A DNA stretch of 64,000 bases from Eledone cirrhosa (Eukaryota). This document shows, piece after piece, positions 6,263 to 64,000 of this stretch (within the stretch, counting starts at the first letter, position 1; the number at the start of each line of letters is the position of its first letter). The notes below the pieces were generated by a model that was not told the origin of the DNA, did not search any database, and saw only the letters and a program-made list of their open reading frames with translations. Made by a program: the position numbers and the translations under genes. The DNA lies in NCBI GenBank assembly GCA_964016885.1, contig OZ024747.1, positions 23,932,001-23,996,000 on the forward strand, in the 5' to 3' direction.

Positions 6263-14405
<8,143 letters not shown>

Positions 14406-17823: not shown

Positions 17824-19767
<1,944 letters not shown>

Positions 19768-19967
19768 NNNNNNNNNNNNNNNNNNNNNNNNNNNNNNNNN
19801 NNNNNNNNNNNNNNNNNNNNNNNNNNNNNNNNNNNNNNNNNNNNNNNNNNNNNNNNNNNNNNNNNNNNNNNNNNNNNNNNNNNNNNNNNNNNNNNNNNNN
19901 NNNNNNNNNNNNNNNNNNNNNNNNNNNNNNNNNNNNNNNNNNNNNNNNNNNNNNNNNNNNNNNNNNN
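19768..19967. other. Assembly gap (200 N)
   Basis: Run of N. Confidence 1.
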
Positions 19968-20181
19968 CATCTATGAAAAGAATATAAATTAATTTAATTG
20001 ATGGGTATATTTATATTGATAAAATTATACTAATACATATAGATATGATAAATAAGAGTTAGATGCAGTTGAAAATTGCTGTTAAAGATGAGGGGAAATT
20101 AAAATAAAATAAAAATAATATATATATATATATATATACTTATACATATATATATATATATATATACATATATATACACAT

Positions 20182-23165: not shown

Positions 23166-23932
23166 ATATTTATATATATATATATTTATACATATATATA
23201 TATTTATACATATATATATATATATTTATACATATATATATATATATTTATTCCTATATATATATTTATATATATATATTTATACATATATATATATTTA
23301 TATATATATATTTATACATATATATATATTTATATATATATATATTTATACATATATATATATTTATATATATATATATTTATACATATATATATATTTA
23401 TATATATATATTTATATATATATATTTATACATATATATATATTTATATATATATATTTATACATATATATATATATATTTATATATATATATATTTATA
23501 CATATATATATATTTATATATATATATATTTATACATATATATATATATATAATTATATATATATATTTATACATATATATATATATAATTATATATATA
23601 TATTTATACATATATATATATATAATTATATATATATATTTATACATATATATATATATTTATATATTTATATATTTATACATATATATATATATAATTA
23701 TATATATATATTTATACATATATATATATAATTATATATATATATTTATACATATATATATATAATTATATATATATATTTATACATATATATATATAAT
23801 TATATATATATATTTATACATATATATATATATTTATATATATATTTATACATATATATATATATATTTATATATATATTTATACATACATATATATATA
23901 TATATATATTTATATATATTTATATATATATA

Positions 23933-23974
<42 letters not shown>

Positions 23975-23982
23975 CATATATA

Positions 23983-24031
<49 letters not shown>

Positions 24032-24339
24032 ATTTATACATATATATATTTATATATATATATATTTATATATATATATATATATTTATACATATATATA
24101 TATATAAATATATATATATATAAATATATATATGTATAAATATATATATATATAAATTTTTATATATATATAAATATATATATATATAAATATATATATG
24201 TATAAATATATATATATATAAATTTTTATATATATATAAATATATATATATATAAATATATATATGTATAAATATATATATATATAAATGTTTATATATA
24301 TATAAATATATATATATATAAATATATATATATATAAAT

Positions 24340-24388
<49 letters not shown>

Positions 24389-24571
24389 AATATATATATA
24401 TATAAATATATATATATATAAATATATATATGTAAATATATATATATATAAATATATATATATGTAAATATATATATATGTAAATATATATATATGTAAA
24501 TATATATATATGTAAATATATATATATGTAAATATATATATATTTATATATATATATATTTATATATATAC

Positions 24572-24619
<48 letters not shown>

Positions 24620-24803
24620 ATTTATATATATATATATTTATATATATATATATATTTATATATATATAAAAATTTATATATATATATATTTATATCGAAA
24701 GTGATTTTTCATTGCATCTCTTCTTTCCATGATATCCGGATTACATTGAGTTCTTCATACGGATTGGACACTACCGTAAACTCTTGGTAGATTTATCTAC
24801 ATA

Positions 24804-24849
<46 letters not shown>

Positions 24850-25115
24850 CATATTTATATTTATACATATATATATTTATATTTATACATATATATATTT
24901 ATATTTATACATATATATATTTATATTTATACATATATATATTTATATTTATACATATATATATTTATATTTATACATATATATATTTATATTTATACAT
25001 ATATATATTTATATTTATACATATATATATTTATATTTATACATATATATATTTATATTTATACATATATATATTTATATTTATACATATATATAATATA
25101 TATATATATATATGT
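23166..25115. repeat. AT-rich (TA)n/(TTTATA)n arrays with an internal inversion and a short unique spacer (~24696-24795)
   Basis: TTTATACATATATA units switch to TATATGTATAAA / TATAAA units at ~24100-24540, then switch back. Confidence 0.93.
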
Positions 25116-25807
25116 GTGTATGTGTGTGTGTGTGTTTCATTTGTTTGCTTTGCAACTCATGAGGTTTGATTCTACAGCATGTTATCTTGACCATCAAGTG
25201 TTTTGGTGTTGGTGAGGATGATGGTAGTGGTTATGATGATGATGATATTAGTGGCGGGTGGGTGATGGGGGTGTTGGTGTTAGTAGGGTTAGCATTGGTG
25301 GTGTTGCAACAGCAGTGATGGTGGTGGTGAGGAGGATGTTGATTATTATGATGATGATGAGGAGGAGGAGAGAGTGGAAAATTTGAAAGACATTGCAGAT
25401 TTGAATGCAACATAGAGCAAAGTATTAAAAAAATAATGTCCTCTCAACTAAACCACAGATATATGTGAGGTGGGAAAACAACACACATTTATCTATATAT
25501 CTATGTAATAATTCATCTATTCAGTTATTTATTTGTTTGTTTATTCCTCTAGGCCACCATATCCTAGTTTCTCAAATTACAATGTCTAGTTGTTATTCAA
25601 TAGAGATGGAGTAGAGACAGTTTTCTCTCTGTTTGATGAAGCTAATGTTGAGGTCAGGACTATCTCACCAATCAAACCTTTATCAACATTTTCAAGTTCC
25701 ATTTGAAGTGAAGGATGGGATGAGGGCTGACAGGGTGGTGCTGCTTTCTTGCAAATTTGATGAATGTTTGGAGTGCAATTGGTGAAGTTGGTACATGTGA
25801 ATGAAAG

Positions 25808-32910: not shown

Positions 32911-35900
32911 AAAGGCAGATTTTTGTGTCTGTATGTATGTTTCAATTTTATACATTTACACAATTCCAAAAATATTGAATGTATAATTAAGCAGAATGTT
33001 TACAAATATTCTAACTTGCGTCATGGGCGAACTTATTGGGTAAAAAATGCCACAATTACGAAAAAAAATCGATTTATTTCAACAATCGATGATTTCTCCT
33101 CTCTCATATGATATACGTTTCCTATATCTACTCCCTTCATCACCTCCCCTTAAAATTGCTACCTTCTCTTATAAGTGTTTGTGAAAAAGAGAAACATTGA
33201 ATAAAAAACATATACACACACATATGTGGGTGCATACACACATATATGTTGGTATGGTTACGATTGACGTCATAGAAACAGGAACGCGGGAATTTCAATC
33301 AATCAACGCATACACAGTTTGTTTTAGAAATAACAAGAGCATATAATGATAAAGAGAGATATAATGATAAAGAGGGAGAGAGAGAGAAACAAACAGACAC
33401 ACTAAAAGACAGATATATGTATGTGTGTTTGCATTAGCGCGTTCAAACTCCATTTCGAAGCTGACTTTCATTTACTAAACTGTAACTTTTTCAATCGGCC
33501 TTACACTTTCAAACTATATTTTTCTGTATAAGTAACTTTAACCCTTTATTTTCGACATAAAAATACACACATACATACAAATACCTGTAAATTTTTTTTG
33601 GGGGGCCTTTCTTATCAATTTTTTACATTCAATTATCAGCCTTATACTTTCAAAGTCAATTTTTATGTTGAAGTAACTTTCACCCTTTATTTTTCGATAC
33701 CCATTTACTTACTAACATTTGTATCACAACAACAACAACAATATTCATAAACAGACTGTAGACTTTCAAAGTCAATTTTTCTGTAGAAGTAACTTTCACC
33801 CTTTCTTTTGGACATAAAATGCCACCTAAAAAGAGAAGTCGCCTCAGTCGACATACCGCGTCAGCAGTGGCGCAAAAGGCTACTATAGCAAACGAGTCCT
33901 CTCAGGAAAATGCTTCAAGACTTTCACAGACAGCCTTACGTTCAGCAGAATATTGAGCCGCTGAAAGTTTCCAACAGCGCACCGCACGCCTAGCCAAAAT
34001 GGCTTCATACCAGGCTTCTTCCAGGGCTTCAGAGAGCCGTGAACAAAGGTCGAAGCGCCTGGCTAGAAACGATGTGACTAATGTTGCTTCCAGGTCTTTG
34101 GAACGTTTAAAACAACAGACGGCTCGCCTTCCTACGAACGCTGCGGCTATGACTACCTCCATGGCTTCTGAAGATGCAGACGGGCGGTCCATTAGCATTG
34201 CAAATGTTGCTTCTGCTATTGCTGCCAGACCTTCCCACCAACCACACGACCAATGTTCTACGTTCAAGCGTAACAGTCGACGGCGAGAAGCTGCACGCGG
34301 TGTGACGAGCCCCAACAGCCCTTACTGGCACCTACGGGCTTTCAAGTATCAGCAAAACATTAATTAGTCGATGCGCTCTGACATAAATATAGGCGAGATG
34401 CGCTTCAATTGCCAATTCTGCAATGCTACAAAGTGGGCTGGGGAGCCACCTGCAATGTGCTGCTTAAACGGTAAGGTCACCTTGCCCCCTCTTCCGGAAC
34501 CGCCAGAGCCTTTGAAGGAACTACTGACTGGTTATACCTCAAGGTCAAAAAAAAAAACCCTGATCCCCCCAATAAAAAACGCTCCTGGGGGTACCGGAAA
34601 AACTTTTGTAACGAATTTGATTCTCGCTAAGATTCGTCAGGAGAAAAAAGTTGCATTGTCCGTTGCATTGTCCGGGATCGCTGCTACTTTGCTGCCGGGA
34701 GGCAGGACAGCACATTCAACCTTTAAACTCCCTTTGGATTTAGTAAAAACTGAGACACCAACATGCAATATCAGCAAGAGTTCACACAAAGCTCTGGTTC
34801 TCAAAAGATGTTGCCTCATTGTTTGGGATGAGTGCACAATGGCACACAAGGGTGCTCTTGAGGCATTGGACAGGGCCCGGAAAGACATTAGGGATTCTAC
34901 GGCTCATATGGGTGGCGTAATCCTTCTGCTATCAGGGGATTTTCGGAAAACGCTGCCTGTCATCCCCAAATGGACAAGAGCTGATGAAGTGCGTGCCTGT
35001 CTTAAGTCGTCCATGTTGTGGCTCCAGGTGAATAGTTTGTACTTGAGCACAAATATGCGTGCTCATTTGCATGGTGACAACATGTCTGCAGCACAGAACA
35101 TTTTAGCACTTGGTGAGGGCAAGATCCCTGCGGATGACAAGGGCGGCATAGCAATCGACACCCTGTGCAACATTGTGAGCAGCCCTTCTGACCTTTGGGA
35201 AACAGTTTTTCCTAATGTCTCATCTAACTTTAAAAACCTCGATTGGCTCAGCGAAAGAGCCATCCTTGCTCCGAAAAATACCATGGTTAATTTTATTAAC
35301 GAATAGCTGATTGAGAAGATTCCCGGTCAAGAGCACATCTTCAAATCAGACCCCGACGATATCGTTAATTACCCGGTTGAGTTATTAAATCTCCTTGAGC
35401 CCCCAGGGCTCCCACCTCACATTATTAAGCTTAGGGTTGGCTGTCCCATTATGCTAATAAGGAACTTGCGTCCACCAAAGCAGTGCAACGGTACTCGCAT
35501 GGTCGTCAAGTCACTGACACCCACTTGATTGAGGCCACCATTGTAACGGGGTGCAGAAGAGGGGAGAATGTTTTCATTCCAAGGATGAACCTTTTCCCCT
35601 CGGCGTCAGATATCCCGTTCGATTTCCGGCAATCCCAATTCCCGGTGAGACCATGTTTTGCCATGTCCATTAACAAGTCACAAGGGCAAACATTGTCGGT
35701 GGCGGGCATCCATTTGGGGGAGCCATGCTTCTCCCATGGCCAACTTTATGTTGCCTGTTCCCGCGCAGGGAGCAGGAATGGACTTTTTGCTTACTCTCCT
35801 CAAGGGATGACACGCAATATCGTCTACAAAGAGGTGCTATAGATGTTGGTGCAGGTGTTGGAGCTATGCCGTCTGGAACACTATTTCCTGGTAAGGTATC

Positions 35901-37470: not shown

Positions 37471-37649
37471 ATCTGTTTTATTGGGGAAAGTATTAAGAAT
37501 CAATGTCAACAAGAAAAGGGATGGGAAAGAGTATGCCATTCCACGGGGTAACCCATTTATCAATGAAACAGACGCTCGTCCAGAGATTTTTGCATATGGA
37601 ATCCGAAATATTTGGCGCTGTGATAAAGATGAAGGGGACCGCATCACAG
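37471..37649 (+). CDS. HHIP-like (HHIPL-type) protein, internal exon A (GSDH beta-propeller)
   Basis: TTTCAG| acceptor and |GTCAGT donor. Encodes SVLLGKVLRINVN..YAIPRGNPFINETDARPEIFAYGIRNIWRCDKDEGDRIT, matching the HHIPL motif LLGKVLRIDV..YxIPxDNPF..PEIYAYGxRNxWRC. Confidence 0.93.
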
Positions 37650-38605: not shown

Positions 38606-38749
38606 GAGAGAACAAAGGGCGAATAATCTGTGGAGATGTTGGCCAGAATGCCTTCGAAGAGATCGATTTATTGGTAAAAGGTGCCAATTATGGCTGGAAT
38701 GGCAGAGAAGGTTACCAATGCTTTCATCCAGCAGTGTGTGGCATGGTTG
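38606..38749 (+). CDS. HHIP-like protein, exon B
   Basis: TTTTGAG| acceptor and |GTAAGT donor. [45 protein letters not shown]. Phase is compatible with exons A and C. Confidence 0.92.
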
Positions 38750-40214: not shown

Positions 40215-40409
<195 letters not shown>

Positions 40410-41355: not shown

Positions 41356-41498
41356 CCGTCTCTTCTATCTTCACCAATACAATGATTCCCAAATCTGGTT
41401 AAACAGAGAGATCCATATGTGTGGAAATGACATCTGTTTCAATGGTTTACTGGGAACTTACAGTCCACATATTCTCTCTTTTGGGGAAGATCAATATG
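41356..41498 (+). CDS. HHIP-like protein, exon D
   Basis: TTGCAG| acceptor and |GTAAGA donor. RLFYLHQYNDSQIWLNREIHMCGNDICFNGLLGTYSPHILSFGEDQY, matching the RL..W..xEICMG..C..ISFxEDExG pattern. Confidence 0.92.
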
Positions 41499-42418: not shown

Positions 42419-42500
42419 GAGAAATCTATATATTGAGCACCAATATAGCCAGTGCCACTGTACAGACTGGGAGTATTTATAAACTGATGGATCCATTCAG
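42419..42500 (+). CDS. HHIP-like protein, exon E
   Basis: TCTTCCAG| acceptor and |GTAAAG donor. GEIYILSTNIASATVQTGSIYKLMDPFR, the last propeller blade (GELY.LST....G.VYK..DP.R). Confidence 0.93.
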
Positions 42501-43245: not shown

Positions 43246-43800
43246 TTAATATGAACCCTGATCAAGCAGATCTAGGATCAAACAAATTCTTGTCAGGATT
43301 AGACAGTATATCTAAGGCAGTGAATTAGGAGTCATTAGAATGTTGAATAGAATGCTTTGCCATATCTGTTCTGGCTCTCTGCATTCTGAACTCAAATGTC
43401 GCTTGGCTCAACATTGATGTTATTCTTTCAAGGTTAGTAATGTATATATCTCTCTCTTGCTTTCTCTCCACTCTCTCTCTATCTATCTATTTTCTTTCTA
43501 TTTCTCTGGTAGAAATCAGTAATGTTCCAACCTAGAGAGGGTTGGGCTCTGCCAGGTTTAAATATTCAATAGACAATATGTGTCATGACAACACCCCCTA
43601 CAACTGCATCAGGAATTAAGTGCACATAGTCATATTGTATCTACTTTATCAAATGTGTCCATATTTCAAGATCTGATGGAGTTTTGGTTGTTATTTTGAA
43701 GAGGTCAATAACCATTTAGACACTTTCCCTCATATTAGTTTGAGAATCACTTTTACATGAGTATATACGATAGTCTTTGTTTTATTTGTTCTTGTTGCAG

Positions 43801-46800
43801 GCGTGGAAACCCTGAACTTTGTGAACCCCAGCTGACATACAACCAAACTGAGGTTCCTTCCATCATATCCGGTGAGTGGCTTCATAGTTCAGGGGACAAT
43901 TATGATGAGTATGGCTCAGCTGAGTGTTTAGACCCATCTGGCTTTACATGTTCATTAATTGGATTGGAGGATAATGAAGTGGAACTTTCAGAGAATCTTC
44001 ATAACAGTTCTAATAAGTTTGAGACCTTTGATGAAGCCGGAGATGACTATATCCCTGTCACTAAACTTCCATCATCAAATAGCGATATTTATGTAGAAAA
44101 AGAATTAGAGAATTTCAATAGTATAAAAGGTGGACCTACTTCAGATGTTGTTAACGGCCAGGAGAAAGAGCACACATCTTTAGTTGTTGGTGAATCACTG
44201 GAATCACCAAAACATAAATTAGCTTCTGTGAATATCACAAATTCTAATTCAACACAAAACAATAACACAAACATATCTTCAATGAATTCTAAATATGAAG
44301 GTTCTATTTTAATACCGGCAAATAACCAGGATCCTACTTCACCTTTACCCAACTACTTAGATTCAACATCACCATCTCAAAACTATCTAAACACAGCATC
44401 ACCACCTACTTACACTTCATTCACTGAGAATTACTTTGATTCTAATTCGGCCTCTGAAAGTCATTTTGATCTCAAATCAACCTCTGGGGATCATCTTGAT
44501 TCTAGTTCAGCTTCTGGAGATAATCTTGACACCAGTTCAGGCTCAGGAGATTATCTGAATTCTGGTTCAGCTGCTGGAAATCATCTTGATTCCAGTTCAG
44601 TCACTGGAGATGATCATCATACTGGTTTAGCCTCTGGAGATAACATTGACTCTGATTCAGACTCTAGAGATCATCTTGATTCTAGTTCAGTTTCTCAAGA
44701 TCATCTAGGTTTCAGTTCAGGTTCTAGAGATCATTTTGATTCTACTTCTGCCAATGAAGTTTACTCTGGCTTAACAGTAACCTCTGGAGATCACCCTCAC
44801 CAGAGCTCAATCTCTTATCCTGGCTCTCGTTCCACCTATGAAAATTATCATAGCATCACAATGATTCCACACTCAGGTTCTTCACATTCTACAAAATCTC
44901 CTACAATATATAAATCCCCCCCTATTACAATTCTACACCCAACATCTGTTATAAACAGTGACATCACAACATTCTTACCTAAATTATACTATAGTTCCAT
45001 TCATACCTCACCTACAACACCACATTCTACCCCAGATTACACAAGATACCACATTTCCACTTCTATAATACAACACTCAAGAGATAACCTGGTGTCAGGC
45101 CCTGTCACTAAAGAGGAACTTGAGTCTAGTTCTGATTCTGAGAATGATCTAGAGTCAAGTTCTGACTCAGAAGAAGACTTTGAGTCGAGAACTGGGTCTG
45201 GTGATCAACTGAAATCAAATCAAGCCAATAAAGTTTCTGGTATTTATGCAGGCACCCCTTCATTAAGGGCCAACAAACCAGGTTCTAATTCAGTTTCTGG
45301 TCATTCTAATAGGTCTATCAAACATAAATCAAATTCCCCAATTTCTAGATATGATCTTTACACCAGCTCAATTTCTAGAGATCATATTCACTCCAGATCT
45401 ACCACTGAAGATTACCTGCCCCATAGCATAGGCTCTGAACATTACGATAACACCAGAATAGTTCCACACTCAACATCTTCACATTCTACAAAATCTCAAA
45501 CAATATATAAATTCCTGTCTGTTACAACACCAGGTCCTACTCCTACAAGTACATCTTATTCAGTTAGTACAGTGCGTTCAGCATCTACTTTGAGATTTGA
45601 GGGTTCTGCTGGCTCTAGCTCTGTTTCTGAGGATAATCTGGAATCCAGCTCTCTGTCTGAGGATGATCTAGAGTCAAGCTCTGACACTGAGAATGATCTA
45701 GAATCTAGTTCTAACACAGAGGATGATATAGAATCTAGCTCCGGATCTGGAGATAAGCTGAAGTCAGAAATTACTACTAAAGATTCCACTTCCTCTAAAA
45801 GATTCTCAAAATCTCATGTTAGATCATCCGTGGATTATTCCCATTCCAGTTCTACCTCTAAAATAAATTCTGTTACTAGTTCCATATATGAAGATGTTCT
45901 TCTTTCCAGTTCTATGTCTGGTAAATACCATCTCACCAGAAGAGTTCAAAGCTCAACTGCTTCACATTCTAAGAAATCTCCTACAGTATATAAATTCCTG
46001 TCTGTTACAAGCCAACAGCCAACTTCTGTTATAAACAGTGACATCACAACAACATTCTCAACTAAACGCTACCCTGGTTCCATTCATACCTCTCTTATAA
46101 CACCTCATCCTACCCCTGTGTACACTAGACAGTTCATTACCAGTTCTGTATTTAATCACTCATTTATAAATGATACTACTGTTATGGCAAGCTCAATGAA
46201 TACTAGTAATTATGTAAACACAACTTCTAGTGTTTATATTAACAGTAAATCTACATTGAGAAATGAAGATAATGAAGAGTCAAGCTATGTCTCAGGAGAT
46301 GATGAGGTTTCTAGCTCTGATTCAAAAGATGAGCTGGAGTCCAGCTCCTCTTTGGGAGATGATTTAGAGACTAGCACATCTTCTAGAGGTGATCTTGTAT
46401 CTATACCTGACACTAGAGGAAATCTGGAATCTAGTTCTGATCCTAGACATGATATAATTTTTGGTGTTAAAACTGGAGAGGAAGAAGATATTAGAGATAA
46501 AGTTACTCAAGGTTCTATTTCTGAAAATGTAATTAACACGAGCAAGAGAAGGGTTGTAGATGTCAGTAATTCTAGATCAAACTCAAAACATAAAGCTGGC
46601 TCCAGTTCTATCTCTGGGAATTACCATAACAACAAAATAAACCCAAACTCAAATTCATCACATTCTACAAAATCTCATACAATTTATAAATTTCTTTCTG
46701 TTACAACACCAACTCCTACACCTACATCTTATTCAGTTAGAACACATAGTTCAGTATATACTTTGAGATTAAAGGGTAGTATGGGGTCCAGCTCTGATTC

Positions 46801-49800
46801 TGAGGATAATCTGGAGTCAAGCTCTGACACTGAGAATGATCTGGAATCAAACTCTGATGCAAAGGATGATCTAGAGTCTAGTTCTGACACAGAGGATGAT
46901 CTTGAGTCTAGCTCTGGGTCTGGAAACAAGCTGAAGTCAGAAATTACTACTAAAGGTTCCATTTCCTCTAAAATATTCTCCAAATCTCATGAGAGATCGT
47001 CAGTAGATTATTCCCATTCCAGTTCTACCTCTAAAATAAATTCTGTTACTGTTTCTGAGGATAATCTGGAATTAAACTCTCTGTCTGAGGATGATCTGGA
47101 GTCAAGCTCTGATAGTGAGAATGATCTGGAATCAAGCTCTGACACAGAGGATGACCTAGAGACTAGCTCTGGGTCTGGAGATAAGCTAAAGTCAGAATTT
47201 ACTACTAAAGATTCATCTTCTTTTAAAAGATTCTCAAAATCTCATGTTAGGTCATCAGGAGATTATTCCCATTCGACTTCTACCTCTAAAATAAATTCTG
47301 TTACTAGTTCCACATATGGAGATGTTCTTCTCTCCAGTTCTATGTCTGCGAAATACCATATGACCAGAAGAGTTCAAAGCTCAACTTCTTCACATCCTAC
47401 AAAATCTCCTATAATATTTAAATTCCTGTCTGTTACAAGCCAACAACCAACCTCTCTTATAAACAGTGACATCAGAACATTCTCAACTAAACTCCACCCT
47501 CGTTCCATTCATACCTCTCCTATAACATCCTATCCTACTGCAGTGTACACTAGACACCTCGTTACCTCTTCTGGCGTAACACCACACTTTTCTTTAAATC
47601 CTGTAGATTCTTTAAAATCAGGTGGAACACTTAACATTGATGATTATCCGACATTTACTACTAAATATATTACAACATCTTCTTCACGTTCCCAATATTA
47701 TACTGACTTTCATTCTACATCTGGAGATGATCTGGACTCTGATTCAGTCTCTGGTGATGATCTAGACTCCAGTTCTACATCTGGAGAAGATCCAGACTCT
47801 AATTATGGCTCTGGATATTACCCAGTCACTCGTACCCCTTCCAGTGTTTCTGTAGGTATCTCTTCCACAAGAGGGAATAAATCAAGCTCTAATCCAATAT
47901 CTGTTAATTTTATTAGATCTACCAAAAGTAATCAAATTACTTCAGTGCCTATAGTTCATAATGGCTCCAGCACAGTTTCTAGAAAACACCTTGATTCTAG
48001 CTCAATTTCTAAAGATCGTCTTCGCTCCAGCTCAGTTTCTAAAGATCATCTTGGCTCCAGCTTGGTTTCTAAAGATCGTTTTGACTCCAGCTCAGTTTCT
48101 AAAGATCGTTTTGACTCCACCTCGATTTCCAAAGATAATCTTCACTTAGTATCATCCTCTGATCATTACCCTCACCACAGCTCGGTATCTCACATTGGCT
48201 TGCATTCCATCTATGCAAATTACGATAACACCAGAATAGTTTCACACACATCTTCACATTCTACAAAATCTGAAACAATATATAAATTCTTCTCTGTTAC
48301 AACACCAGGTCCTACTCCTACTAGTACACATTATTCAGTTGGTACAACTCATTCAATATCTACTTTGAGATTTGGGGGTCATGTTGGATCTAGCTCTGTT
48401 TCTGAGGATAATCCGCAATCAAACTCTCTGTCTGAGGATGATCTGGAGTCAAGCTCTGATAGTGAGAATGATCTGGAATCAAGCTCTGACACAGAGGATG
48501 ACCTAGAGTCTAGCTCTGGGTCTGGAGATAAGCTAAAGTCAGAATTTACTACTAAAGATTCATCTTCTTTTAAAAGATTCTCAAAATCTCATGTTAGGTC
48601 ATCAGGAGATTATTCCCATTCGACTTCTACCTCTAAAATAAATTCTGTTACTAGTTCCACATATGGAGATGTTCTTCTCTCCAGTTCTATGTCTGCGAAA
48701 TACCATATGACCAGAAGAGTTCAAAGCTCAACTTCTTCACATCCTACAAAATCTCCTATAATATTTAAATTCCTGTCTGTTACAAGCCAACAACCAACCT
48801 CTCTTATAAACAGTGACATCAGAACATTCTCAACTAAACTCCACCCTCGTTCCATTCATACCTCTCCTATAACATCCTATCCTACTGCAGTGTACACTAG
48901 ACACCTCGTTACCTCTTCTGGCGTAACACCACACTTTTCTTTAAATCCTGTAGATTCTTTAAAATCAGGTGGAACACTTAACATTGATGATTATCCGACA
49001 TTTACTACTAAATATATTACAACATCTTCTTCACGTTCCCAATATTATACTGACTTTCATTCTACATCTGGAGATGATCTGGACTCTGATTCAGTCTCTG
49101 GTGATGATCTAGACTCCAGTTCTACATCTGGAGAAGATCCAGACTCTAATTATGGCTCTGGATATTACCCAGTCACTCGTACCCCTTCCAGTGTTTCTGT
49201 AGGTATCTCTTCCACAAGAGGGAATAAATCAAGCTCTAATCCAATATCTGTTAATTTTATTAGATCTACCAAAAGTAATCAAATTACTTCAGTGCCTATA
49301 GTTCATAATGGCTCCAGCACAGTTTCTAGAAAACACCTTGATTCTAGCTCAATTTCTAAAGATCATCTTCGCTCCAGCTCAGTTTCTAAAGATCATCTTG
49401 GCTCCAGCTCGGTTTCTAAAGATCGTTTTGACTCCAGCTCAGTTTCTAAAGATCGTTTTGACTCCACCTCGATTTCCAAAGATAATCTTCACTTAGTATC
49501 ATCCTCTGATCATTACCCTCACCACAGCTCGGTATCTCACATTGGCTTGCATTCCATCTATGGAAATTACGATAACACTAGAATAGTTTCACACACATCT
49601 TCACATTCTACAAAATCTGAAACAATATATAAATTCTTGTCTGTTACAACACCAGGTCCTACTCCTACTAGTACACATTATTCAGTTGGTACAACTCATT
49701 CAATATCTACTTTGAGATTTGGGGGTCATGTTGGATCTAGCTCTGTTTCTGAGGATAATCCGCAATCAAACTCTCTGTCTGAGGATGATCTGGAGTCAAG

Positions 49801-52800
49801 CTCTGATAGTGAGAATGATCTGGAATCAAGCTCTGACAGTGAGAATGATCTGGAATCAAGCTCTGACACAGAGGATGGCCTAGAGTCTAGCTCTGGGTCT
49901 GGAGATAAGCTAAAGTCAGAATTTACTACTAAAGATTCATCTTCTTTTAAAAGATTCTCAAAATCTCATGTTAGGTCATCAGGAGATTATTCCCATTCGA
50001 CTTCTACCTCTAAAATAAATTCTGTTACTAGTTCCACATATGGAGATGTTCTTCTCTCCAGTTCTATGTCTGCGAAATACCATATGACCAGAAGAGTTCA
50101 AAGCTCAACTTCTTCACATCCTACAAAATCTCCTATAATATTTAAATTCCTGTCTGTTACAAGCCAACAACCAACCTCTCTTATAAACAGTGACATCAGA
50201 ACATTCTCAATTAAACTCCACCCTCGTTCCATTCATACCTCTCCTATAACATCCTATCCTACTGCAGTGTACACTAGACACCTCGTTACCTCTTCTGGCG
50301 TAACACCACACTTTTCTTTAAATCCTGTAGATTCTTTAAAATCAGGTGGAACACTTAACATTGATGATTATCCGACATTTACTACTAAATATATTACAAC
50401 ATCTTCTTCACGTTCCCAATATTATACTGACTTTCATTCTACATCTGGAGATGATCTGGACTCTGATTCAGTCTCTGGTGATGATCTAGACTCCAGTTCT
50501 ACATCTGGAGAAGATCCAGACTCTAATTATGGCTCTGGATATTACCCAGTCACTCGTACCCCTTCCAGTGTTTCTGTAGGTATCTCTTCCACAAGAGGGA
50601 ATAAATCAAGCTCTAATCCAATATCTGTTCATTTTATTAGATCTACCAAAAGTAATCAAATTACTTCAGTGCCTATAGTTCATAATGGCTCCAGCACAGT
50701 TTCAAGAAAACACCTTGATTCTAGCTCAATTTCTAAAGATCGTCTTCGCTCCAGCTCAGTTTCTAAAGATCATCTTGGCTCCAGCTCGGTTTCTAAAGAT
50801 CGTTTTGACTCCAGCTCAGTTTCTAAAGATCGTTTTGACTCCACCTCGATTTCCAAAGATAATCTTCACTTAGTATCATCCTCTGATCATTACCCTCACC
50901 ACAGCTCGGTATCTCACATTGGCTTGCATTCCATCTATGCAAATTACGATAACACCAGAATAGTTTCACACACATCTTCACATTCTACAAAATCTGAAAC
51001 AATATATAAATTCTTGTCTGTTACAACACCAGGTCCTACTCCTACTAGTACACATTATTCAGTTGGTACAACTCATTCAATATCTACTTTGAGATTTGGG
51101 GGTCATGTTGGATCTAGCTCTGTTTCTGAGGATAATCCGCAATCAAACTCTCTGTCTGAGGATGATCTGGAGTCAAGCTCTGATAGTGAGAATGATCTGG
51201 AATCAAGCTCTGACACAGAGGATGGCCTAGAGTCTAGCTCTGGGTCTGGAGATAAGCTAAAGTCAGAATTTACTACTAAAGATTCATCTTCTTTTAAAAG
51301 ATTCTCAAAATCTCATGTTAGGTCATCAGGAGATTATTCCCATTCGACTTCTACCTCTAAAATAAATTCTGTTACTAGTTCCACATATGGAGATGTTCTT
51401 CTCTCCAGTTCTATGTCTGCGAAATACCATATGACCAGAAGAGTTCAAAGCTCAACTTCTTCACATCCTACAAAATCTCCTATAATATTTAAATTCCTGT
51501 CTGTTACAAGCCAACAACCAACCTCTCTTATAAACAGTGACATCAGAACATTCTCAACTAAACTCCACCCTCGTTCCATTCATACCTCTCCTATAACATC
51601 CTATCCTACTGCAGTGTACACTAGACACCTCGTTACCTCTTCTGGCATAACACCACACTTTTCTTTAAATCCTGTAGATTCTTTAAAATCAGGTGGAACA
51701 CTTAACATTGATGATTATCCGACATTTACTACTAAATATATTACAACATCTTCTTCACGTTCCCAATATTATACTGACTTTCATTCTACATCTGGAGATG
51801 ATCTGGACTCTGATTCAGTCTCTGGTGATGATCTAGACTCCAGTTCTACATCTGGAGAAGATCCAGACTCTAATTATGGCTCTGGATATTACCCAGTCAC
51901 TCGTACCCCTTCCAGTGTTTCTGTAGGTATCTCTTCCACAAGAGGGAATAAATCAAGCTCTAATCCAATATCTGTTAATTTTATTAGATCTACCAAAAGT
52001 AATCAAATTACTTCAGTGCCTATAGTTCATAATGGCTCCAGCACAGTTTCAAGAAAACACCTTGATTCTAGCTCAATTTCTAAAGATCGTCTTCGCTCCA
52101 GCTCAGTTTCTAAAGATCATCTTGGCTCCAGCTCGGTTTCTAAAGATCGTTTTGACTCCAGCTCAGTTTCTAAAGATCGTTTTGACTCCACCTCGATTTC
52201 CAAAGATAATCTTCACTTAGTATCATCCTCTGATCATTACCCTCACCACAGCTCGGTATCTCACATTGGCTTGCATTCCATCTATGCAAATTACGATAAC
52301 ACCAGAATAGTTTCACACACATCTTCACATTCTACAAAATCTGAAACAATATATAAATTCTTGTCTGTTACAACACCAGGTCCTACTCCTACTAGTACAC
52401 ATTATTCAGTTGGTACAACTCATTCAATATCTACTTTGAGATTTGGGGGTCATGTTGGATCTAGCTCTGTTTCTGAGGATAATCCGCAATCAAACTCTCT
52501 GTCTGAGGATGATCTGGAGTCAAGCTCTGATAGTGAGAATGATCTGGAATCAAGCTCTGACACAGAGGATGGCCTAGAGTCTAGCTCTGGGTCTGGAGAT
52601 AAGCTAAAGTCAGAATTTACTACTAAAGATTCATCTTCTTTTAAAAGATTCTCAAAATCTCATGTTAGGTCATCAGGAGATTATTCCCATTCGACTTCTA
52701 CCTCTAAAATAAATTCTGTTACTAGTTCCACATATGGAGATGTTCTTCTCTCCAGTTCTATGTCTGCGAAATACCATATGACCAGAAGAGTTCAAAGCTC

Positions 52801-55800
52801 AACTTCTTCACATCCTACAAAATCTCCTATAATATTTAAATTCCTGTCTGTTACAAGCCAACAACCAACCTCTCTTATAAACAGTGACATCAGAACATTC
52901 TCAACTAAACTCCACGCTCATTCCATTCATACCTCTCCTATAACATCCTATCCTACTGCAGTGTACACTAGACACCTCGTTACCTCTTCTGGCGTAACAC
53001 CACACTTTTCTTTAAATCCTGTAGATTCTTTAAAATCAGGTGGAACACTTAACATTGATGATTATCCGACATTTACTACTAAATATATTACAACATCTTC
53101 TTCACGTTCCCAATATTATACTGACTTTCATTCTACATCTGGAGATGATCTGGACTCTGATTCAGTCTCTGGTGATGATCTAGACTCCAGTTCTACATCT
53201 GGAGAAGATCCAGACTCTAATTATGGCTCTGGATATTACCCAGTCACTCGTACCCCTTCCAGTGTTTCTGTAGGTATCTCTTCCACAAGAGGGAATAAAT
53301 CAAGCTCTAATCCAATATCTGTTAATTTTATTAGATCTACCAAAAGTAATCAAATTACTTCAGTGCCTATAGTTCATAATGGCTCCAGCACAGTTTCTAG
53401 AAAACACCTTGATTCTAGCTCAATTTCTAAAGATCGTCTTCGCTCCAGCTCAGTTTCTAAAGATCATCTTGGCTCCAGCTCGGTTTCTAAAGATCGTTTT
53501 GACTCCAGCTCAGTTTCTAAAGATCGTTTTGACTCCACCTCGATTTCCAAAGATAATCTTCACTTAGTATCATCCTCTGATCATTACCCTCACCACAGCT
53601 CGGTATCTCACATTGGCTTGCATTCCATCTATGCAAATTACGATAACACCAGAATAGTTTCACACACATCTTCACATTCTACAAAATCTGAAACAATATA
53701 TAAATTCTTGTCTGTTACAACACCAGGTCCTACTCCTACTAGTACACATTATTCAGTTGGTACAACTCATTCAATATCTACTTTGAGATTTGGGGGTCAT
53801 GTTGGATCTAGCTCTGTTTATGAGGATAATCCGCAATCAAACTCTCTGTCTGAGGATGATCTGGAGTCAAGCTCTGATAGTGAGAATGATCTGGAATCAA
53901 GCTCTGACACAGAGGATGGCCTAGAGTCTAGCTCTGGGTCTGGAGATAAGCTAAAGTCAGAACTTACAACTAAAGATTCATCTTCTTTTAAAAGATTCTC
54001 AAAATCTCATGTTAGATCATCAGGAGATTATTCCCATTCGACTTCTACCTCTAAAATAAATTCTGTTACTAGTTCCACATATGGAGATGTTCTTCTCTCC
54101 AGTTCTATGTCTGTGAAATACCATATGACCAGAAGAGTTCAAAGCTCAACTTCTTCACATCCTACAAAATCTCCTATAATATTTAAATTCCTGTCTGTTA
54201 CAAGCCAACAACCAACCTCTCTTATAAACAGTGACATCAGAACATTCTCAACTAAACTCCACCCTCGTTCCATTCATACCTCTCCTATAACATCCTATCC
54301 TACTGCAGTGTACACTAGACACCTCGTTACCTCTTCTGGCCTAACACCACACTTTTCTTTAAATCCTGTAGATTCTTTAAAATCAGGTGGAACACTTAAC
54401 ATTGATGATTATCCGACATTTACTACTAAATATATTACAACATCTTCACGTTCCCAATATTATACTGACTTTCATTCTACATCTGGAGATGATCTGGACT
54501 CTGATTCAGTCTCTGGTGATGATCTAGACTCCAGTTCTACATCTGGAGAAGATCCAGACTCTAATTATGGCTCTGGATATTACCCAGTCACTCGTACCCC
54601 TTCCAGTGTTTCTGTAGGTATATCTTCCACAAGAGGGAATAAATCAAGCTCTAATCCAATATCTGTTCATTTTATTAGATCTACCAAAAGTAATCAAATT
54701 ACTTCAGTGCCTATAGTTCATAATGGCTCCAGCACAGTTTCTAGAAAACACCTTGATTCTAGCTCAATTTCTAAAGATCGTCTTCGCTCCAGCTCAGTTT
54801 CTAAAGATCATCTTGGCTCCAGCTCGGTTTCTAAAGATCGTTTTGACTCCAGCTCAATTTCTAAAGATCGTTTTGACTCCACCTCGATTTCCAAAGATAA
54901 TCTTCACTTAGTATCATCCTCTGATCATTACCCTCACCACAGCTCGGTATCTCACATTGGCTTGCATTCCATCTATGCAAATTACGATAACACCAGAATA
55001 GTTTCACACACATCTTCACATTCTACAAAATCTCAAACAATATATAAATTCTTGTCTCTTACAACACCAGGTCCTACTCCTACTAGTACACATTATTCAG
55101 TTGGTACAACTCATTCAACATCTACTTTGAGATTTGGGGGTCATGTTGGATCTAGCTCTGTTTCTGAGGATAATCCGCAATCAAACTCTCTGTCTGAGGA
55201 TGATCTGGAGTCAAGCTCTGATAGTGAGAATGATCTGGAATCAAGCTCTGACACAGAGGATGGCCTAGAGTCTAGCTCTGGGTCTGGAGATAAGCTAAAG
55301 TCAGAATTTACAACTAAAGATTCATCTTCTTTTAAAAGATTCTCAAAATCTCATGTTAGATCATCGGGAGATTATTCCCACTCGACTTCTACCTCTAAAA
55401 TAAATTCTGTTACTAGTTCCACATATGGAGATGTTCTTCTCTCCAGTTCTATGTCCGCGAAATACCATATGACCAGAAGAGTTCAAAGCTCAACTTCTTC
55501 ACATCCTACAAAATCTCCTATAATATTTAAATTCCTGTCTGTTACAAGCCAACAACCAACCTCTCTTATAAACAGTGACATCAGAACATTCGCAACTAAA
55601 CTCCACCCTCGTTCCATTCATACCTCTCCTATAACATCCTATCCTACTGCAGTGTACACTAGACACCTCGTTACCTCTTCTGGCGTAACACCACACTTTT
55701 CTTTAAATCCTGTAGATTCTTTAAAATCAGGTGGAACACTTAACATTGATGATTATCCGACATTTACTACTAAATATATTACATCTTCTTCACATTCCCA

Positions 55801-58800
55801 ATATTATACTGACTTTCATTCTACATCTGGAGATGATCTGGACTCTGATTCAGTCTCTGGTGATGATCTAGACTCCAGTTCTACATCTGGAGAAGATCCA
55901 GACTCTAATTATGGCTCTGGATATTACCCAGTCACTCGTACCCCTTCCAGTGTTTCTGTAGGTATCTCTTCGACAAGAATAGATAAATCAAGCTCTAATC
56001 CAATATCTGTTCATTTTATTAGATCTACCAAAAGTAATCAAATTACTTCAGTGCCTATAGTTCATAATGGCTCCAGCACAGTTTCTAGAAAACACCTTGA
56101 TTCTAGCTCAATTTCTAAAGATCGTCTTCGCTCCAGCTCAATTTCTAAAGATCATCTTGGCTCCAGCTCGGTTTCTAAAGATCGTTTTGACTCCACCTCG
56201 ATTTCCAAAGATAATCTTCACTTAGTATCATCCTCTGATCATTACCCTCACCACAGCTCGGTATCTCACATTGGCTTGCATTCCATCTATGCAAATTACA
56301 ATAACACCAGAATAGTTTCACACACATCTTCACATTCTACAAAATCTCAAACAATATATAAATTCTTGTCTGTTACAACACCAGGTCCTACTCCTACTAG
56401 TACACATTATTCAGTTGGTACAACTCATTCAACATCTACTTTGAGATTTGGGGGTCATGTTGGATCTAGCTCTGTTTCTGAGGATAATCCGCAATCAAAC
56501 TCTCTGTCTGAGGATGATCTGGAGTCAAGCTCTGATAGTGAGAATGATCTGGAATCAAGCTCTGACACAGAGGATGACCTAGAGTCTAGCTCTGGGTCTG
56601 GAGATAAGCTAAAGTCAGAATTTACTACTAAAGATTCATCTTCTTTTAATAGATTCTCAAAATCTCATGTTAGGTCATCAGGACATTATTCCCATTCCAC
56701 TTCTACCTCTAAAATAAATTCTGTTACTAGTTCCACATATGGAGATGTTCTTCTCTCCAGTTCTATGTCTGCGAAATACCATATGACCAGAAGAGTTCAA
56801 AGCTCAACTTCTTCACATCCTACAAAATCTCCTATAATATTTAAATTCCTGTCTGTTACAAGCCAACAACCAACCTCTCTTATAAACAGTGACATCAGAA
56901 CATTCTCAACTAAACTCCACCCTCGTTCCATTCATACCTCTCCTATAACATCCTATCCTACTGCAGTGTACACTAGACACCTCGTTACCTCTTCTGGCGT
57001 AACACCACACTTTTCTTTAAATCCTGTAGATTCTTTAAAATCAGGTGGAACACTTAACATTGATGATTATCCGACATTTACTACTAAATATATTACAACA
57101 TCTTCACGTTCCCAATATTATACTGACTTTCATTCTACATCTGGAGATGATCTGGACTCTGATTCAGTCTCTGGTGATGATCTAGACTCCAGTTCTACAT
57201 CTGGAGAAGATCCAGACTCTAATTATGGCTCTGGATATTACCCAGTCACTCGTACCCCTTCCAGTGTTTCTGTAGGTATCTCTTCCACAAGAGGGAATAA
57301 ATCAAGCTCTAATCCAATATCTGTTCATTTTATTAGATCTACCAAAAGTAATCAAATTACTTCAGTGCCTATAGTTCATAATGGCTCCAGCACAGTTTCT
57401 AGAAAACACCTTGATTCTAGCTCAATTTCTAAAGATCGTCTTCGCTCCAGCTCAGTTTCTAAAGATCATCTTGGCTCCAGCTCGGTTTCTAAAGATCGTT
57501 TTGACTCCAGCTCAATTTCTAAAGATCGTTTTGACTCCACCTCGATTTCCAAAGATAATCTTCACTTAGTATCATCCTCTGATCATTACCCTCACCACAG
57601 CTCGGTATCTCACATTGGCTTGCATTCCATCTATGCAAATTACGATAACACCAGAATAGTTTCACACACATCTTCACATTCTACAAAATCTCAAACAATA
57701 TATAAATTCTTGTCTCTTACAACACCAGGTCCTACTCCTACTAGTACACATTATTCAGTTGGTACAACTCATTCAACATCTACTTTGAGATTTGGGGGTC
57801 ATGTTGGATCTAGCTCTGTTTCTGAGGATAATCCGCAATCAAACTCTCTGTCTGAGGATGATCTGGAGTCAAGCTCTGATAGTGAGAATGATCTGGAATC
57901 AAGCTCTGACACAGAGGATGGCCTAGAGTCTAGCTCTGGGTCTGGAGATAAGCTAAAGTCAGAATTTACAACTAAAGATTCATCTTCTTTTAAAAGATTC
58001 TCAAAATCTCATGTTAGATCATCGGGAGATTATTCCCACTCGACTTCTACCTCTAAAATAAATTCTGTTACTAGTTCCACATATGGAGATGTTCTTCTCT
58101 CCAGTTCTATGTCTGCGAAATACCATATGACCAGAAGAGTTCAAAGCTCAACTTCTTCACATCCTACAAAATCTCCTATAATATTTAAATTCCTGTCTGT
58201 TACAAGCCAACAACCAACCTCTCTTATAAACAGTGACATCAGAACATTCGCAACTAAACTCCACCCTCGTTCCATTCATACCTCTCCTATAACATCCTAT
58301 CCTACTGCAGTGTACACTAGACACCTCGTTACCTCTTCTGGCGTAACACCACACTTTTCTTTAAATCCTGTAGATTCTTTAAAATCAGGTGGAACACTTA
58401 ACATTGATGATTATCCGACATTTACTACTAAATATATTACATCTTCTTCACATTCCCAATATTATACTGACTTTCATTCTACATCTGGAGATGATCTGGA
58501 CTCTGATTCAGTCTCTGGTGATGATCTAGACTCCAGTTCTACATCTGGAGAAGATCCAGACTCTAATTATGGCTCTGGATATTACCCAGTCACTCGTACC
58601 CCTTCCAGTGTTTCTGTAGGTATCTCTTCGACAAGAATAGATAAATCAAGCTCTAATCCAATATCTGTTCATTTTATTAGATCTACCAAAAGTAATCAAA
58701 TTACTTCAGTGCCTATAGTTCATAATGGCTCCAGCACAGTTTCTAGAAAACACCTTGATTCTAGCTCAATTTCTAAAGATCGTCTTCGCTCCAGCTCAAT

Positions 58801-61800
58801 TTCTAAAGATCATCTTGGCTCCAGCTCGGTTTCTAAAGATCGTTTTGACTCCACCTCGATTTCCAAAGATAATCTTCACTTAGTATCATCCTCTGATCAT
58901 TACCCTCACCACAGCTCGGTATCTCACATTGGCTTGCATTCCATCTATGCAAATTACAATAACACCAGAATAGTTTCACACACATCTTCACATTCTACAA
59001 AATCTCAAACAATATATAAATTCTTGTCTGTTACAACACCAGGTCCTACTCCTACTAGTACACATTATTCAGTTGGTACAACTCATTCAACATCTACTTT
59101 GAGATTTGGGGGTCATGTTGGATCTAGCTCTGTTTCTGAGGATAATCCGCAATCAAACTCTCTGTCTGAGGATGATCTGGAGTCAAGCTCTGATAGTGAG
59201 AATGATCTGGAATCAAGCTCTGACACAGAGGATGACCTAGAGTCTAGCTCTGGGTCTGGAGATAAGCTAAAGTCAGAATTTACTACTAAAGATTCATCTT
59301 CTTTTAATAGATTCTCAAAATCTCATGTTAGGTCATCAGGACATTATTCCCATTCCACTTCTACCTCTAAAATAAATTCTGTTACTAGTTCCACATATGG
59401 AGATGTTCTTCTCTCCAGTTCTATGTCTGCGAAATACCATATGACCAGAAGAGTTCAAAGCTCAACTTCTTCACATCCTACAAAATCTCCTATAATATTT
59501 AAATTCCTGTCTGTTACAAGCCAACAACCAACCTCTCTTATAAACAGTGACATCAGAACATTCTCAACTAAACTCCACCCTCGTTCCATTCATACCTCTC
59601 CTATAACATCCTATCCTACTGCAGTGTACACTAGACACCTCGTTACCTCTTCTGGCGTAACACCACACTTTTCTTTAAATCCTGTAGATTCTTTAAAATC
59701 AGGTGGAACACTTAACATTGATGATTATCCGACATTTACTACTAAATATATTACAACATCTTCACGTTCCCAATATTATACTGACTTTCATTCTACATCT
59801 GGAGATGATCTGGACTCTGATTCAGTCTCTGGTGATGATCTAGACTCCAGTTCTACATCTGGAGAAGATCCAGACTCTAATTATGGCTCTGGATATTACC
59901 CAGTCACTCGTACCCCTTCCAGTGTTTCTGTAGGTATCTCTTCCACAAGAGGGAATAAATCAAGCTCTAATCCAATATCTGTTCATTTTATTAGATCTAC
60001 CAAAAGTAATCAAATTACTTCAGTGCCTATAGTTCATAATGGCTCCAGCACAGTTTCTAGAAAACACCTTGATTCTAGCTCAATTTCTAAAGATCGTCTT
60101 CGCTCCAGCTCAGTTTCTAAAGATCGTTTTGACTCCAGCTCAGTTTCTAAAGATCGTTTTGACTCCACCTCAATTTCCAAAGATAATCTTCACTTAGTAT
60201 CATCCTCTGATCATTACCCTCACCACAGCTCGGTATCTCACATTGGCTTGCATTCCATCTATGCAAATTACGATAACACCAGAATAGTTTCACACACATC
60301 TTCACATTCTACAAAATCTCAAACAATATATAAATTCTTGTCTGTTACAACACCAGGTCCTCCTCCTACTAGTACACATTATTCAGTTGGTACATCTCAT
60401 TCAACATCTACTTTGAGATTTGGGGGTCATGTTGGATCTAGCTCTGTTTCTGAGGATAATCCGGAATCAAACTCTCTGTCTGAGGATAATCTGGAGTCAA
60501 GCTCTGATAGTGAGAATGATCTGGAATCAAGCTCTGACACAGAGGATGGCCTAGAGTCTAGCTCTGGGTCTGGAGATAAGCTAAAGTCAGAATTTACTAC
60601 TAAAGATTCATCTTTTAATAGATTCTCAAAATCTCATGTTAGGTCATCAGGAGATTATTCCCATTCGACTTCTACCTCTAAAATAAATTCTGTTACTAGT
60701 TCCACATATGGAGATGTTCTTCTCTCCAGTTCTATGTCTGCGAAATATCATATGACCAGAAGAGTTCAAAGCTCAACTTCTTCACATCCTACAAAATCTC
60801 CTATAATATTTAAATTCCTGTCTGTTACAAGCCAACAACCAACCTCTCTTATAAACAGTGACATCAGAACATTCTCAACTAAACTCCACCCTCGTTCCAT
60901 TCATACCTCTCCTATAACATCCCATCCTACTCCAGTGTACACTAGACACCTCGTTACCCCTTCTGGCGTAACACCACACTTTTCTTTAAATCCTGTAGAT
61001 TCTTTAAAATCAGGTGGAACACTTAACATTGATGATTATCCGACATTTACTACTAAATATATTACAACATCTTCTTCACGTTCCCAATATTATACTGACT
61101 TTCATTCTACATCTGGAGATGATCTGGACTCTGATTCAGTCTCAGGTGATGATCTAGACTCCAGTTCTACATCTGGAGAAGATCCAGACTCTAATTATGG
61201 CTCTGGATATTACCCAGTCACTCGTACCCCTTCCAGTGTTTCTGTAGGAATCTCTTCAACAAAAGTCGTTAAATCAAGCTCTAATCCAATATCTGTTCAT
61301 GTTATTAGATCTACCAAAAGTAATCAAATTACTTCAGTGCCTATAGTTCATAATGGCTCAAGCACATTTTCTAGAAAACACCTTGATTCTAGCTCAATTT
61401 CTAAAGATCGTCTTCGCTCCAGCTCAGTTTCTAAAGATCGTTTTGACTCCAGCTCAGTTTCTAAAGATCGTTTTGACTCCACCTCGATTTCCAAAGACAA
61501 TCTTCACTTAGTATCATCCTCTGATCATTACCCTCACCACAGCTCGGTATCTCAGATTGGCTTGCATTCCATCTATGAAAATTACGATAACACCAGAATA
61601 GTTTCACACACATCTTCACATTCTACAAAATCTCAAACAATATATAAATTCTTGTCTGTTACAACACCAGGTCCTACTCCTACTAGTACACATTATTCAG
61701 TTGGTACAACTCATTCAACATCTACTTTGAGATTTAGGGGTCATGTTGGATCTAGCTCTGTTTCTGAGGATAATCCGCAATCAAACTCTCTGTCTGAGGA

Positions 61801-63430
61801 TGATCTGGAGTCAAGCTCTGATAGTGAGAATGATCTGGAATCAAGCTCTGACACAGAGGATGACCTACAGTCTAGTTCTGGGTTTGGAGATAAGCTGAAG
61901 TCAGAATTTACTACTCAAGATTCATCTTTTAAAAGATTCTTAAAATCTCATGTTAGATCATCAGGAGATTATTCCCATTCTACCTTTAAAATAAATTCTG
62001 TTACTAGTTCCACATATGGAGATGTTCTTCTTTCCATTTCTATGTCTAGGAATTACCATATGACCAGAAGAGTTCAAAGCTCAACTCCTTCATATTCTAA
62101 GAAATCTCCTACAATATTTAAATTCCTGTCTGTTACAAAGCAACAGCCAACCTCTATAATGAACAGTGATATCACCACAACTTTCTCACTTAAACTCCAC
62201 TCTGGTTCCATTCATACCTCTCCCATAGTATCACGTCCTACCCCAGTGTACACTAGACATCCCATTGCCTCTTCTAGTGTAACACTACATTCGTTTTTAA
62301 ACCCTGTAGATTCTTTTAAATCAAGTGAAACACTCAATATTGATGATCATCTTACATTTATGACCAAACATCCTACACCATCTCCTTCAATTTCCAAACT
62401 TTATACTGACTATGGTTCTGCATCTGGAGATGATATCGATTCCAGTTCTACCTCTGGTGATGATCTGGACTCTACTTCTGGAGCTGGACATGATCTGGAC
62501 TCTAATTCTGGATATGGTGATGATGTGGACTCTGGTTCTACTCCCGGAAAAGATTCAGTTTCCAACTATGGCTCTGGACATTTCCCAAGCTCTAATATCC
62601 TCTCTGGTGTTTATGCAGTTTTATCTTCATCAAGGATAGTTAAACCAGTCTCTAATTCAATTTCTGATCATTCTATTAAATCTACCCAAATTAATTCCAA
62701 CTCCTCCATGGTTGCTTCTTCAACTACTTTAGACTCAATTTCTCTATATCATATTGATAATAACTCTATTTCTGGCAATAGAAATAGTTCTAGTTCTTCC
62801 TTAATCCATAATCCACTCCAGAAGCTTAGCTCCAGAAAATCTTCACATACAAATTCAGAATCTAGTTTGACTCTTGTTGATGATGTGGACTACAGTTCTG
62901 GCTCAAGTGATCATCTCTCCTCAAACTCTGCCTCAGGTGATGACCTTGACCCCAACTCTGCTTCTGGTGATGATCTTGATACCAGCTCGGCCTCAGGTGA
63001 TCATCTTGACACCAACTCTGGCTCTGGTGTCAGTTCAGAAAGTTATAGATCAGGCAATGACCAGAAAATTTCAAGTTCTACCTTGCTTCATAAAAAAGAG
63101 GATTCAAAACCTGATAAAAAGTGTAGATGTCAATCAAAACTCCTATGTGCCATCAGTTCAAACTACAAACATGAAAAGTCAGTAAGCAATGACATTTACA
63201 TCCAGAGTTACCCTCACACAAGATCTAAACGACAGACAAGGCAAATAAAGAGAAAAAAGAAAAGCTGGAAAAGCTTATTCTTAAATACTCGACCATACAC
63301 AAGGCACCATTCTCATGAGAAGTTACATGTGCATTTTCAACCATCTGCTTTGAGAAAACAATCACCTGATGATAGTAATAAAGATCACATCATTCAAGAT
63401 TTGGTTCCTAGTGACATGTATGATTACTAA
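43801..63430 (+). CDS. HHIP-like protein, giant terminal exon: ~6,540-aa Ser/Thr/Asp/His-rich tandem-repeat (mucin/proteoglycan-like) tail
   Basis: Polypyrimidine tract + TTGCAG| acceptor at 43800. The phase-2 join with exon E gives DPFR-RGNPELC (compare HHIPL DPSRRAPPGKC). In frame with the stop-free ORF 43757-63430. Confidence 0.85.
47051..61759 (+). repeat. Coding tandem array: 11 units of 1314-1377 bp (mostly 1344/1347), plus a diverged partial 12th unit to ~62700
   Basis: Landmark CATAATGGCTC has its ATG at 47961, 49308, 50685, 52032, 53379, 54723, 56067, 57381, 58725, 60039 and 61353. Confidence 0.97.
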
Positions 63431-63714
63431 GACGTTGAAAACATTCCACAAAGCTGAGTCTTAAACTATTGTGACGCATTGATTTTGTCTGTTTTCCTCT
63501 CTTTTCCACCAGCCTTCTTGTTTCTTATCTGTTTTCCCATTTCTTACATGTCCTCTAATAATCCAGGATTAAGATAAAAATCTATTTTTTAAAGCAATGA
63601 AAAGGCTAACATCTTATGTGATAAAAATTCATTTATTGTGGAATATTTTGTTATTTTTATTCTTAAAAAAAAACATGAAAAATATTTTCTGTTAAGAAAA
63701 TACAAAAATTATGA

Positions 63715-63720
63715 AATAAA
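63715..63720 (+). promoter_or_regulatory. Candidate polyadenylation signal AATAAA
   Basis: AATAAA ~285 bp after the stop codon. The context is AT-rich, so a chance occurrence is possible. Confidence 0.35.
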
Positions 63721-63980: not shown

Positions 63981-64000
63981 TATATATATATATATATATC

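Follow-up and report, generated by a model that had tools for sequence, protein, structure and literature searches.

The window, a stretch of 64,000 nucleotides of the Eledone cirrhosa contig OZ024747.1, carries six exons of HHIPL1 detected by tblastn (Table 1), and sequence comparison identifies the gene as the octopus HHIPL1 orthologue: used as a query, the exon at 41356 matched one cluster, Octopus HHIP-like protein 1. A Pfam search of the Octopus sinensis isoform X1 (P0004), to which the short gene model described below is 85% identical, retrieved a signal peptide, Folate_rec and GSDH, and through this orthologue the E. cirrhosa protein is predicted to have the Cys-rich N-terminal Folate_rec and GSDH beta-propeller of the HHIPL family. 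Exons 1 and 2 sit 1.06 Mb away in inverted orientation; exon 1 begins with a hydrophobic stretch and the exon phases join. Two 200-N gaps (window 19768-19967 and G000:C7:24,961,101-24,961,300) enclose a block of about 1.01 Mb. HHIPL1 exons 1 and 2 lie beyond the second of these gaps, on the opposite strand. Because each exon part has a single match and the phases are compatible, the displacement probably reflects a mis-oriented scaffold block, or else a real inversion. Very long low-GC simple repeats adjoin the scaffold gap (window 6000-14500, 17700-20000, and 23100-25200) and produce spurious long ORFs, and HHIPL1 intron 2 contains a broken PIF1-type-helicase-like sequence (33820-35842), which we take to be that of a Helitron. 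A diverged HHIPL paralogue elsewhere in the genome (G000:C3:138,928,862-138,954,500; about 32-55% per exon) matches the exon structure up to exon 7 and retains the exon 7 phase-2 donor. In the 55 kb behind that exon, the plus strand has no ORF of at least 200 aa other than simple repeats, and the next exon of the paralogue could not be pinned, so that it is uninformative on the donor at 43871.

Table 1. Features of the E. cirrhosa HHIPL1 locus. Positions are those of the window unless another sequence is named; P0001 is the O. vulgaris protein.
Feature	Position	Strand	Remarks
HHIPL1 exons 1-2	G000:C7:25,049,964-25,049,008 and 25,034,243-25,034,158	opposite	exon 1 86% identity
HHIPL1 exon 3 (beta-propeller)	37471..37649	+	tblastn 82% to P0001
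HHIPL1 exon 4	38606..38749	+	tblastn 89% to P0001
HHIPL1 exon 5	40231..40360	+	tblastn 91% to P0001
HHIPL1 exon 6	41356..41498	+	tblastn 80% to P0001
HHIPL1 exon 7	42419..42500	+	tblastn to P0001; phase 2 end
Exon 8, short form, 71 bp	43801..43871	+	phase 2 to phase 1; 80% to P0001 residues 573-597
Alternative 5' splice site CCG/GTGAGT	43869..43877	+	only GT[AG]AGT and top donor score in the ORF
Read-through, 5' unique part and diverged repeats	43872..47638	+	frame of exon 8; first Met at 44282
Ten tandem units, 1311-1377 bp (437-459 aa)	47639..61030	+	mutual similarity 98-100%; every indel 3 or 30 bp
Final diverged unit with unique basic C-terminus and stop	61031..63430	+	homologue: O. bimaculoides XP_052827340.1
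Candidate intronic poly(A) signal AATAAA	63715..63720	+	motif only; ATTAAA at 63790
Short last exon, 17 coding bases	L002:5164-5180 = G000:C7:24001164-24001180 (extended coordinate 69164)	+	phase-1 acceptor; G-K-I-Q-M-stop

An earlier sequence-only reading had placed a consensus donor, TCCG/GTGAGT, at 43871/43872, just after the conserved RGNPELC segment, and had proposed that its use would yield a normal 71-bp exon, whereas reading through it would give a tail of 6,500 aa, perhaps exonised from a former intron and alternatively included. The donor is indeed present (window 43868-43877, with the G at 43871 and the GT at 43872-3) and is the best-scoring one of the ORF, and the acceptor ttgttgcag directly 5' of 43801 delimits together with it an exon of exactly that length, running from phase 2 to phase 1 and encoding RGNPELC...IIS. 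Scored against the donor consensus MAG/GTRAGT, it is the sole GT in the 19.6-kb ORF to reach 6/7 (the next best are six GTs at 5), and with 7/9 matches it is level with the better constitutive donors. A single copy of such a motif anywhere in the ORF (GT[AG]AGT occurs once in 43801-63430) is unremarkable, since shuffling the codons of a non-redundant version of 7.6 kb gave 0.46-0.51 copies of GGT[AG]AGT (0.06 per kb), and the motif by itself is modest evidence; its falling inside the first 100 bp of the ORF is an event of about 0.6%. Given the outcome of the shuffles, the donor was therefore tested against homologues. The O. sinensis HHIPL1 isoforms X1 and X2 end in NIS-GILQM and NIS-VI, respectively, and diverge at the very residue split by the donor; the codons for G and V both start with G, which a phase-1 junction demands. 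The C-terminus of O. vulgaris HHIPL1 resembles the X1 ending.

The exon encoding the X1-like ending lies outside the window, 25.3 kb downstream of the donor, with an AATAAA about 200 bases further on. Of the 1,594 AG sites scanned from the donor to the next gene, it fits the X1 ending best (score 21 vs 13 for the runner-up), with a CAG acceptor and 80% pyrimidines, and in a control of 190 kb of DNA read on both strands a score of 21 was reached by 1 of 19,918 AG sites and by none of the 323 strong acceptors. For the X2 ending (VI-stop) the scanned AG sites held no convincing match. The joined short model measures 602 aa and shares 85.2% identity with O. sinensis X1 across its full length, with one gap. 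Of the exons expected by the sequence-only reading beyond position 64000, a phase-1 acceptor exon was thus recovered, as one exon rather than a series. Internal donor and downstream acceptor exon, the pairing characteristic of a composite terminal exon, are accordingly both predicted from the sequence and from orthologue annotation. Strong phase-1-compatible acceptors also occur at window 63513 and at L002:784, between the end of the ORF and the last exon; either could introduce another short last exon, and the one at L002:784 would start with Val, as O. sinensis X2 does. Further downstream HHIPL exons were rejected, since tblastn of 200 kb was negative and a convergent PDI-family gene (PDIA3/PDIA4-like; L002:7197-7621, minus strand, with further exons in L002-L003) has its end near 71,200, some 2 kb beyond the short last exon, leaving no space for more HHIPL1 exons unless they overlap it.

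When the donor is not used, the frame of exon 8 continues for 6,519 codons to a stop at 63428-30. Counted over 6,542 codons, this frame has 0 stops and the remaining five have 259-801; read-through from the five other donors in the window extends for 1-70 codons. The first Met lies 137 codons past the donor and, at the intron stop rate of 0.058 per codon, 140 open codons (roughly the distance from donor to first Met) have a probability of about 2e-4. In many local hits, the diverged copies flanking the ten tandem units have fallen to 72-88% nucleotide identity without acquiring a stop, although 3.7% of point changes would create one; 31 of the 35 gaps in their alignments are multiples of 3 (redundant hits included), and dN/dS between them is 0.49-0.79, mildly below 1 and derived from low-complexity alignments. 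Codon asymmetry after the donor (chi2 34-64) exceeds that of 7 intron windows (1.5-10), a signal weakened by the exon 1 control, which scored just 3.9. The read-through frame is under selection. DNA contigs from three runs, which represent one sample, possibly the assembly's own, include one per run that spans 43535-45502 and so bridges the donor. Contigs over the repeat unit are about 11-13 times deeper than those over the unique 3' end, which is indicative, depth not being copy number, and fits a real array of about 11 copies, perhaps not independently of the assembly. As the three runs cover introns in the way that DNA does, they are uninformative on expression.

Among 7,959 scored candidates, the last 964 tail residues had one match, the O. 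bimaculoides protein XP_052827340.1, with 46% identity over 478 columns and a common C-terminus; O. sinensis and O. vulgaris yielded no tail. The stop lies here about 9 codons earlier and is followed in frame by DVENIPQS-stop (window 63428-63457), resembling the O. bimaculoides ending QDIENIPRR, so that a Gln-to-stop change is likely to have shortened the tail by about 9 residues. An older O. bimaculoides tail model of 1,159 aa starts inside a repeat and contains five YKFLSVT repeats, compared with 25 here. Only the array of 449-aa units looks recent; the tail as a whole is not a recent species-specific acquisition. In O. bimaculoides the tail is annotated as a separate gene whose accession adjoins that of HHIPL1 (XP_052827341.1) and whose contig has the identical length, neighbouring accessions that, by annotation practice, presumably denote adjacent genes. 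The HHIPL1 model of this species lacks exon 7 and terminates within exon 8 in a different frame, which would explain the separate annotation of the tail. For ORF residues 21-130 (the first 110 from exon 8 on) there was no homologue among 147 candidates, and the continuity of exon and tail is therefore read from this genome only. Queries of the E. cirrhosa genome with two tail segments, the first 200 residues and the last 143, returned this locus alone among the top-scored candidates, so that no gene emerged as the donor of the tail. Pfam detected no domain in three tail segments, the ESM Atlas gave no usable match to the tail C-terminus, and the literature searched yielded nothing on octopus HHIP-like proteins, on the evolution of HHIPL isoforms in invertebrates, or on this locus.

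The tail is of low complexity and rich in Ser (26%), Thr (10%), and Asp (8%), with five Cys, a net charge of -139, and no hydrophobic segment (maximum 19-residue hydropathy 1.03). S-x-E is the kinase site motif of phosphoproteins resembling dentin sialophosphoprotein, and the tail lacks the enrichment of a phosphoprotein of this type, the motif being depleted (18 observed vs 55 expected; 9 vs 26 in the non-redundant tail); the O. bimaculoides tail has 16 vs 19 expected. By contrast, Ser-Gly is enriched in the non-redundant tail (59 observed vs 31 expected), as is acid-flanked Ser-Gly (32 vs 12), and the O. bimaculoides tail shows the same tendency (29 vs 12 and 18 vs 5, respectively). None of 200 local shuffles reached the observed counts, a significance inflated by micro-repeats, and Gly-Ser showed no enrichment over shuffles. 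Ser-Gly within an unstructured acidic context is the glycosaminoglycan sequon (PMC10570366). Such sequons in acidic low-complexity surroundings are enriched over local shuffles in both species, and because acid-flanked Ser-Gly matches this context our preferred functional guess, at about even odds, is that the tail is a proteoglycan-like core bearing glycosaminoglycans. Known proteoglycan core proteins likewise carry Ser-Gly sequons, although the tail has no sequence homology to any of them.

We propose that exon 8 is a composite terminal exon from which HHIPL1 would make both a 602-aa short form and a 7,116-aa giant form, a reading to which we assign a probability of about 0.7. At the level of sequence, the switch proposed by the sequence-only reading has good support. 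Splicing from 43871 to 69164 would yield the short protein, and from the sequence and its homologues we are highly confident that the donor is used. Skipping of the donor followed by polyadenylation near 63715 would instead create a 19.9-kb last exon and a protein of 772 kDa; the read-through proceeds in frame to its stop and an intronic poly(A) signal, recognised by motif only, follows. The 26 copies of AATAAA inside the ORF count against the long form, which we nevertheless predict with good confidence to be made. Since the donor is strong, its skipping would need regulation. Splicing would compete with intronic 3'-end cleavage, the intronic signal being transcribed 5.4 kb before the acceptor. 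The predicted signal peptide of exon 1 would send the long form out of the cell, where a glycosaminoglycan-bearing tail would hold the HHIP-like head in the extracellular matrix. As to how the tail arose, we lean towards exonisation of an old intron rather than intronisation.

The separate annotation of the O. bimaculoides tail in two models and the lack of a long isoform among the 6 Octopus HHIPL1 cluster members, in a search that covered proteins up to 2,000 aa, are what one would expect if HHIPL1 gave the short form only and the ORF were a distinct gene nested on the same strand with its own start. We consider this unlikely: the reading frame runs on from exon 8 without a stop through all 137 codons between donor and first Met, which argues against a nested gene and also against a short intron that is always removed, no hydrophobic sequence occurs at that Met or in any segment of the tail, and the shortened O. 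bimaculoides HHIPL1 model would itself account for the split annotation. The same open stretch bears on the idea that the donor is always used and that the giant form results from an in-frame acceptor inside the ORF, such as the TAG at 44361 (0.75 pyrimidines; seven weaker ones lie within 1.5 kb). This would dispense with the skipping of a strong donor, but the 489 bases skipped are open and coding-like in the same frame, unexpected of an intron that is always removed, and we hold it to be improbable.

Equally little favours the opposite extreme, in which the long form is the sole product in E. cirrhosa, with the donor and small exon surviving as relics. The ORF is certainly huge and intact, and the 17 conserved coding bases of the last exon are too few to prove present use, but donor, polypyrimidine tract, acceptor, frame, and stop position have all stayed intact and match Octopus X1. 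Ten near-identical units and a mild dN/dS might finally suggest that the frame is open by chance, in a repeat array that is not translated or through an error of assembly; this is very improbable considering the stop-free diverged copies, the homologue in O. bimaculoides, and the DNA contigs that bridge the donor and support the copy number, albeit from a single sample that may be the assembly's. If the composite terminal exon that we favour is real, the gene has a 7,100-aa isoform absent from public annotations, which list Octopus HHIPL1 at 556-601 aa, and a tail annotated as an unrelated 'clumping factor A-like' gene belongs to HHIPL1, making it a candidate for a large proteoglycan core of cephalopods joined to a Hedgehog-pathway head. 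Cephalopod cartilage has a Hedgehog link. A more far-reaching scenario, which we advance as a doubtful possibility, is that octopods built a giant matrix proteoglycan in the last HHIPL1 intron, a choice between splicing and polyadenylation converting a diffusible, 602-aa modulator of Hedgehog into an aggrecan-like, glycosaminoglycan-loaded Hedgehog anchor of megadalton size in, for example, cartilage or skin, with a tail length that differs among species by repeat expansion.

Within the HHIPL1/HHIPL2 family, the C-termini that follow the common Cys vary widely (SRCR, NTR, hydrophobic, or T/P/K-rich), the longest tail among the 49 homologues listed having 568 aa, compared with about 6,535 predicted here. 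Echinoderm HHIPL isoforms (P0160-P0162, P0189-P0193, and P0016) exchange an NTR domain for tails that are short or hydrophobic. In the sea urchin Lytechinus and the sea cucumber Apostichopus the C-termini swap 21 and 20 residues after the common Cys; as far as can be read from proteins only, the E or G at the swap agrees with an intron in phase 1. The octopus switch comes 16 residues after that Cys. The exon boundary proposed by the sequence-only reading is therefore shared exactly by the O. sinensis isoforms and approximately by echinoderms, with intron homology that is likely but inexact; the intron at the C-terminal switch is likely ancient, and C-terminal choice seems to recur at the junction equivalent to 43871. 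Human HHIPL1 is a secreted protein that co-precipitates with SHH (PMC6686954).

Read-through of a donor normally truncates the protein, whereas in octopus HHIPL1 it would lengthen it twelve-fold, by means of a last exon of roughly 20 kb. In FLT1, the soluble form sFlt1-i13 arises by donor read-through into the intron and cleavage, in competition with splicing (PMC2926593), and intron 13 has, on this description, the anatomy of a composite terminal exon like that proposed for octopus HHIPL1. The pairing of a small with a giant, repeat-rich product of one gene recalls AHNAK, with products of about 700 kDa and 17 kDa and a giant exon (PMC10682155), and PRX (periaxin), with products of 1,461 and 147 aa (PMC12617670). 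AHNAK and periaxin are intracellular PDZ proteins, unlike the predicted secreted HHIPL1 form; the giant AHNAK exon is reported with introns on both flanks, and in PRX intron retention generates the short form, a polarity opposite to that proposed for octopus HHIPL1.
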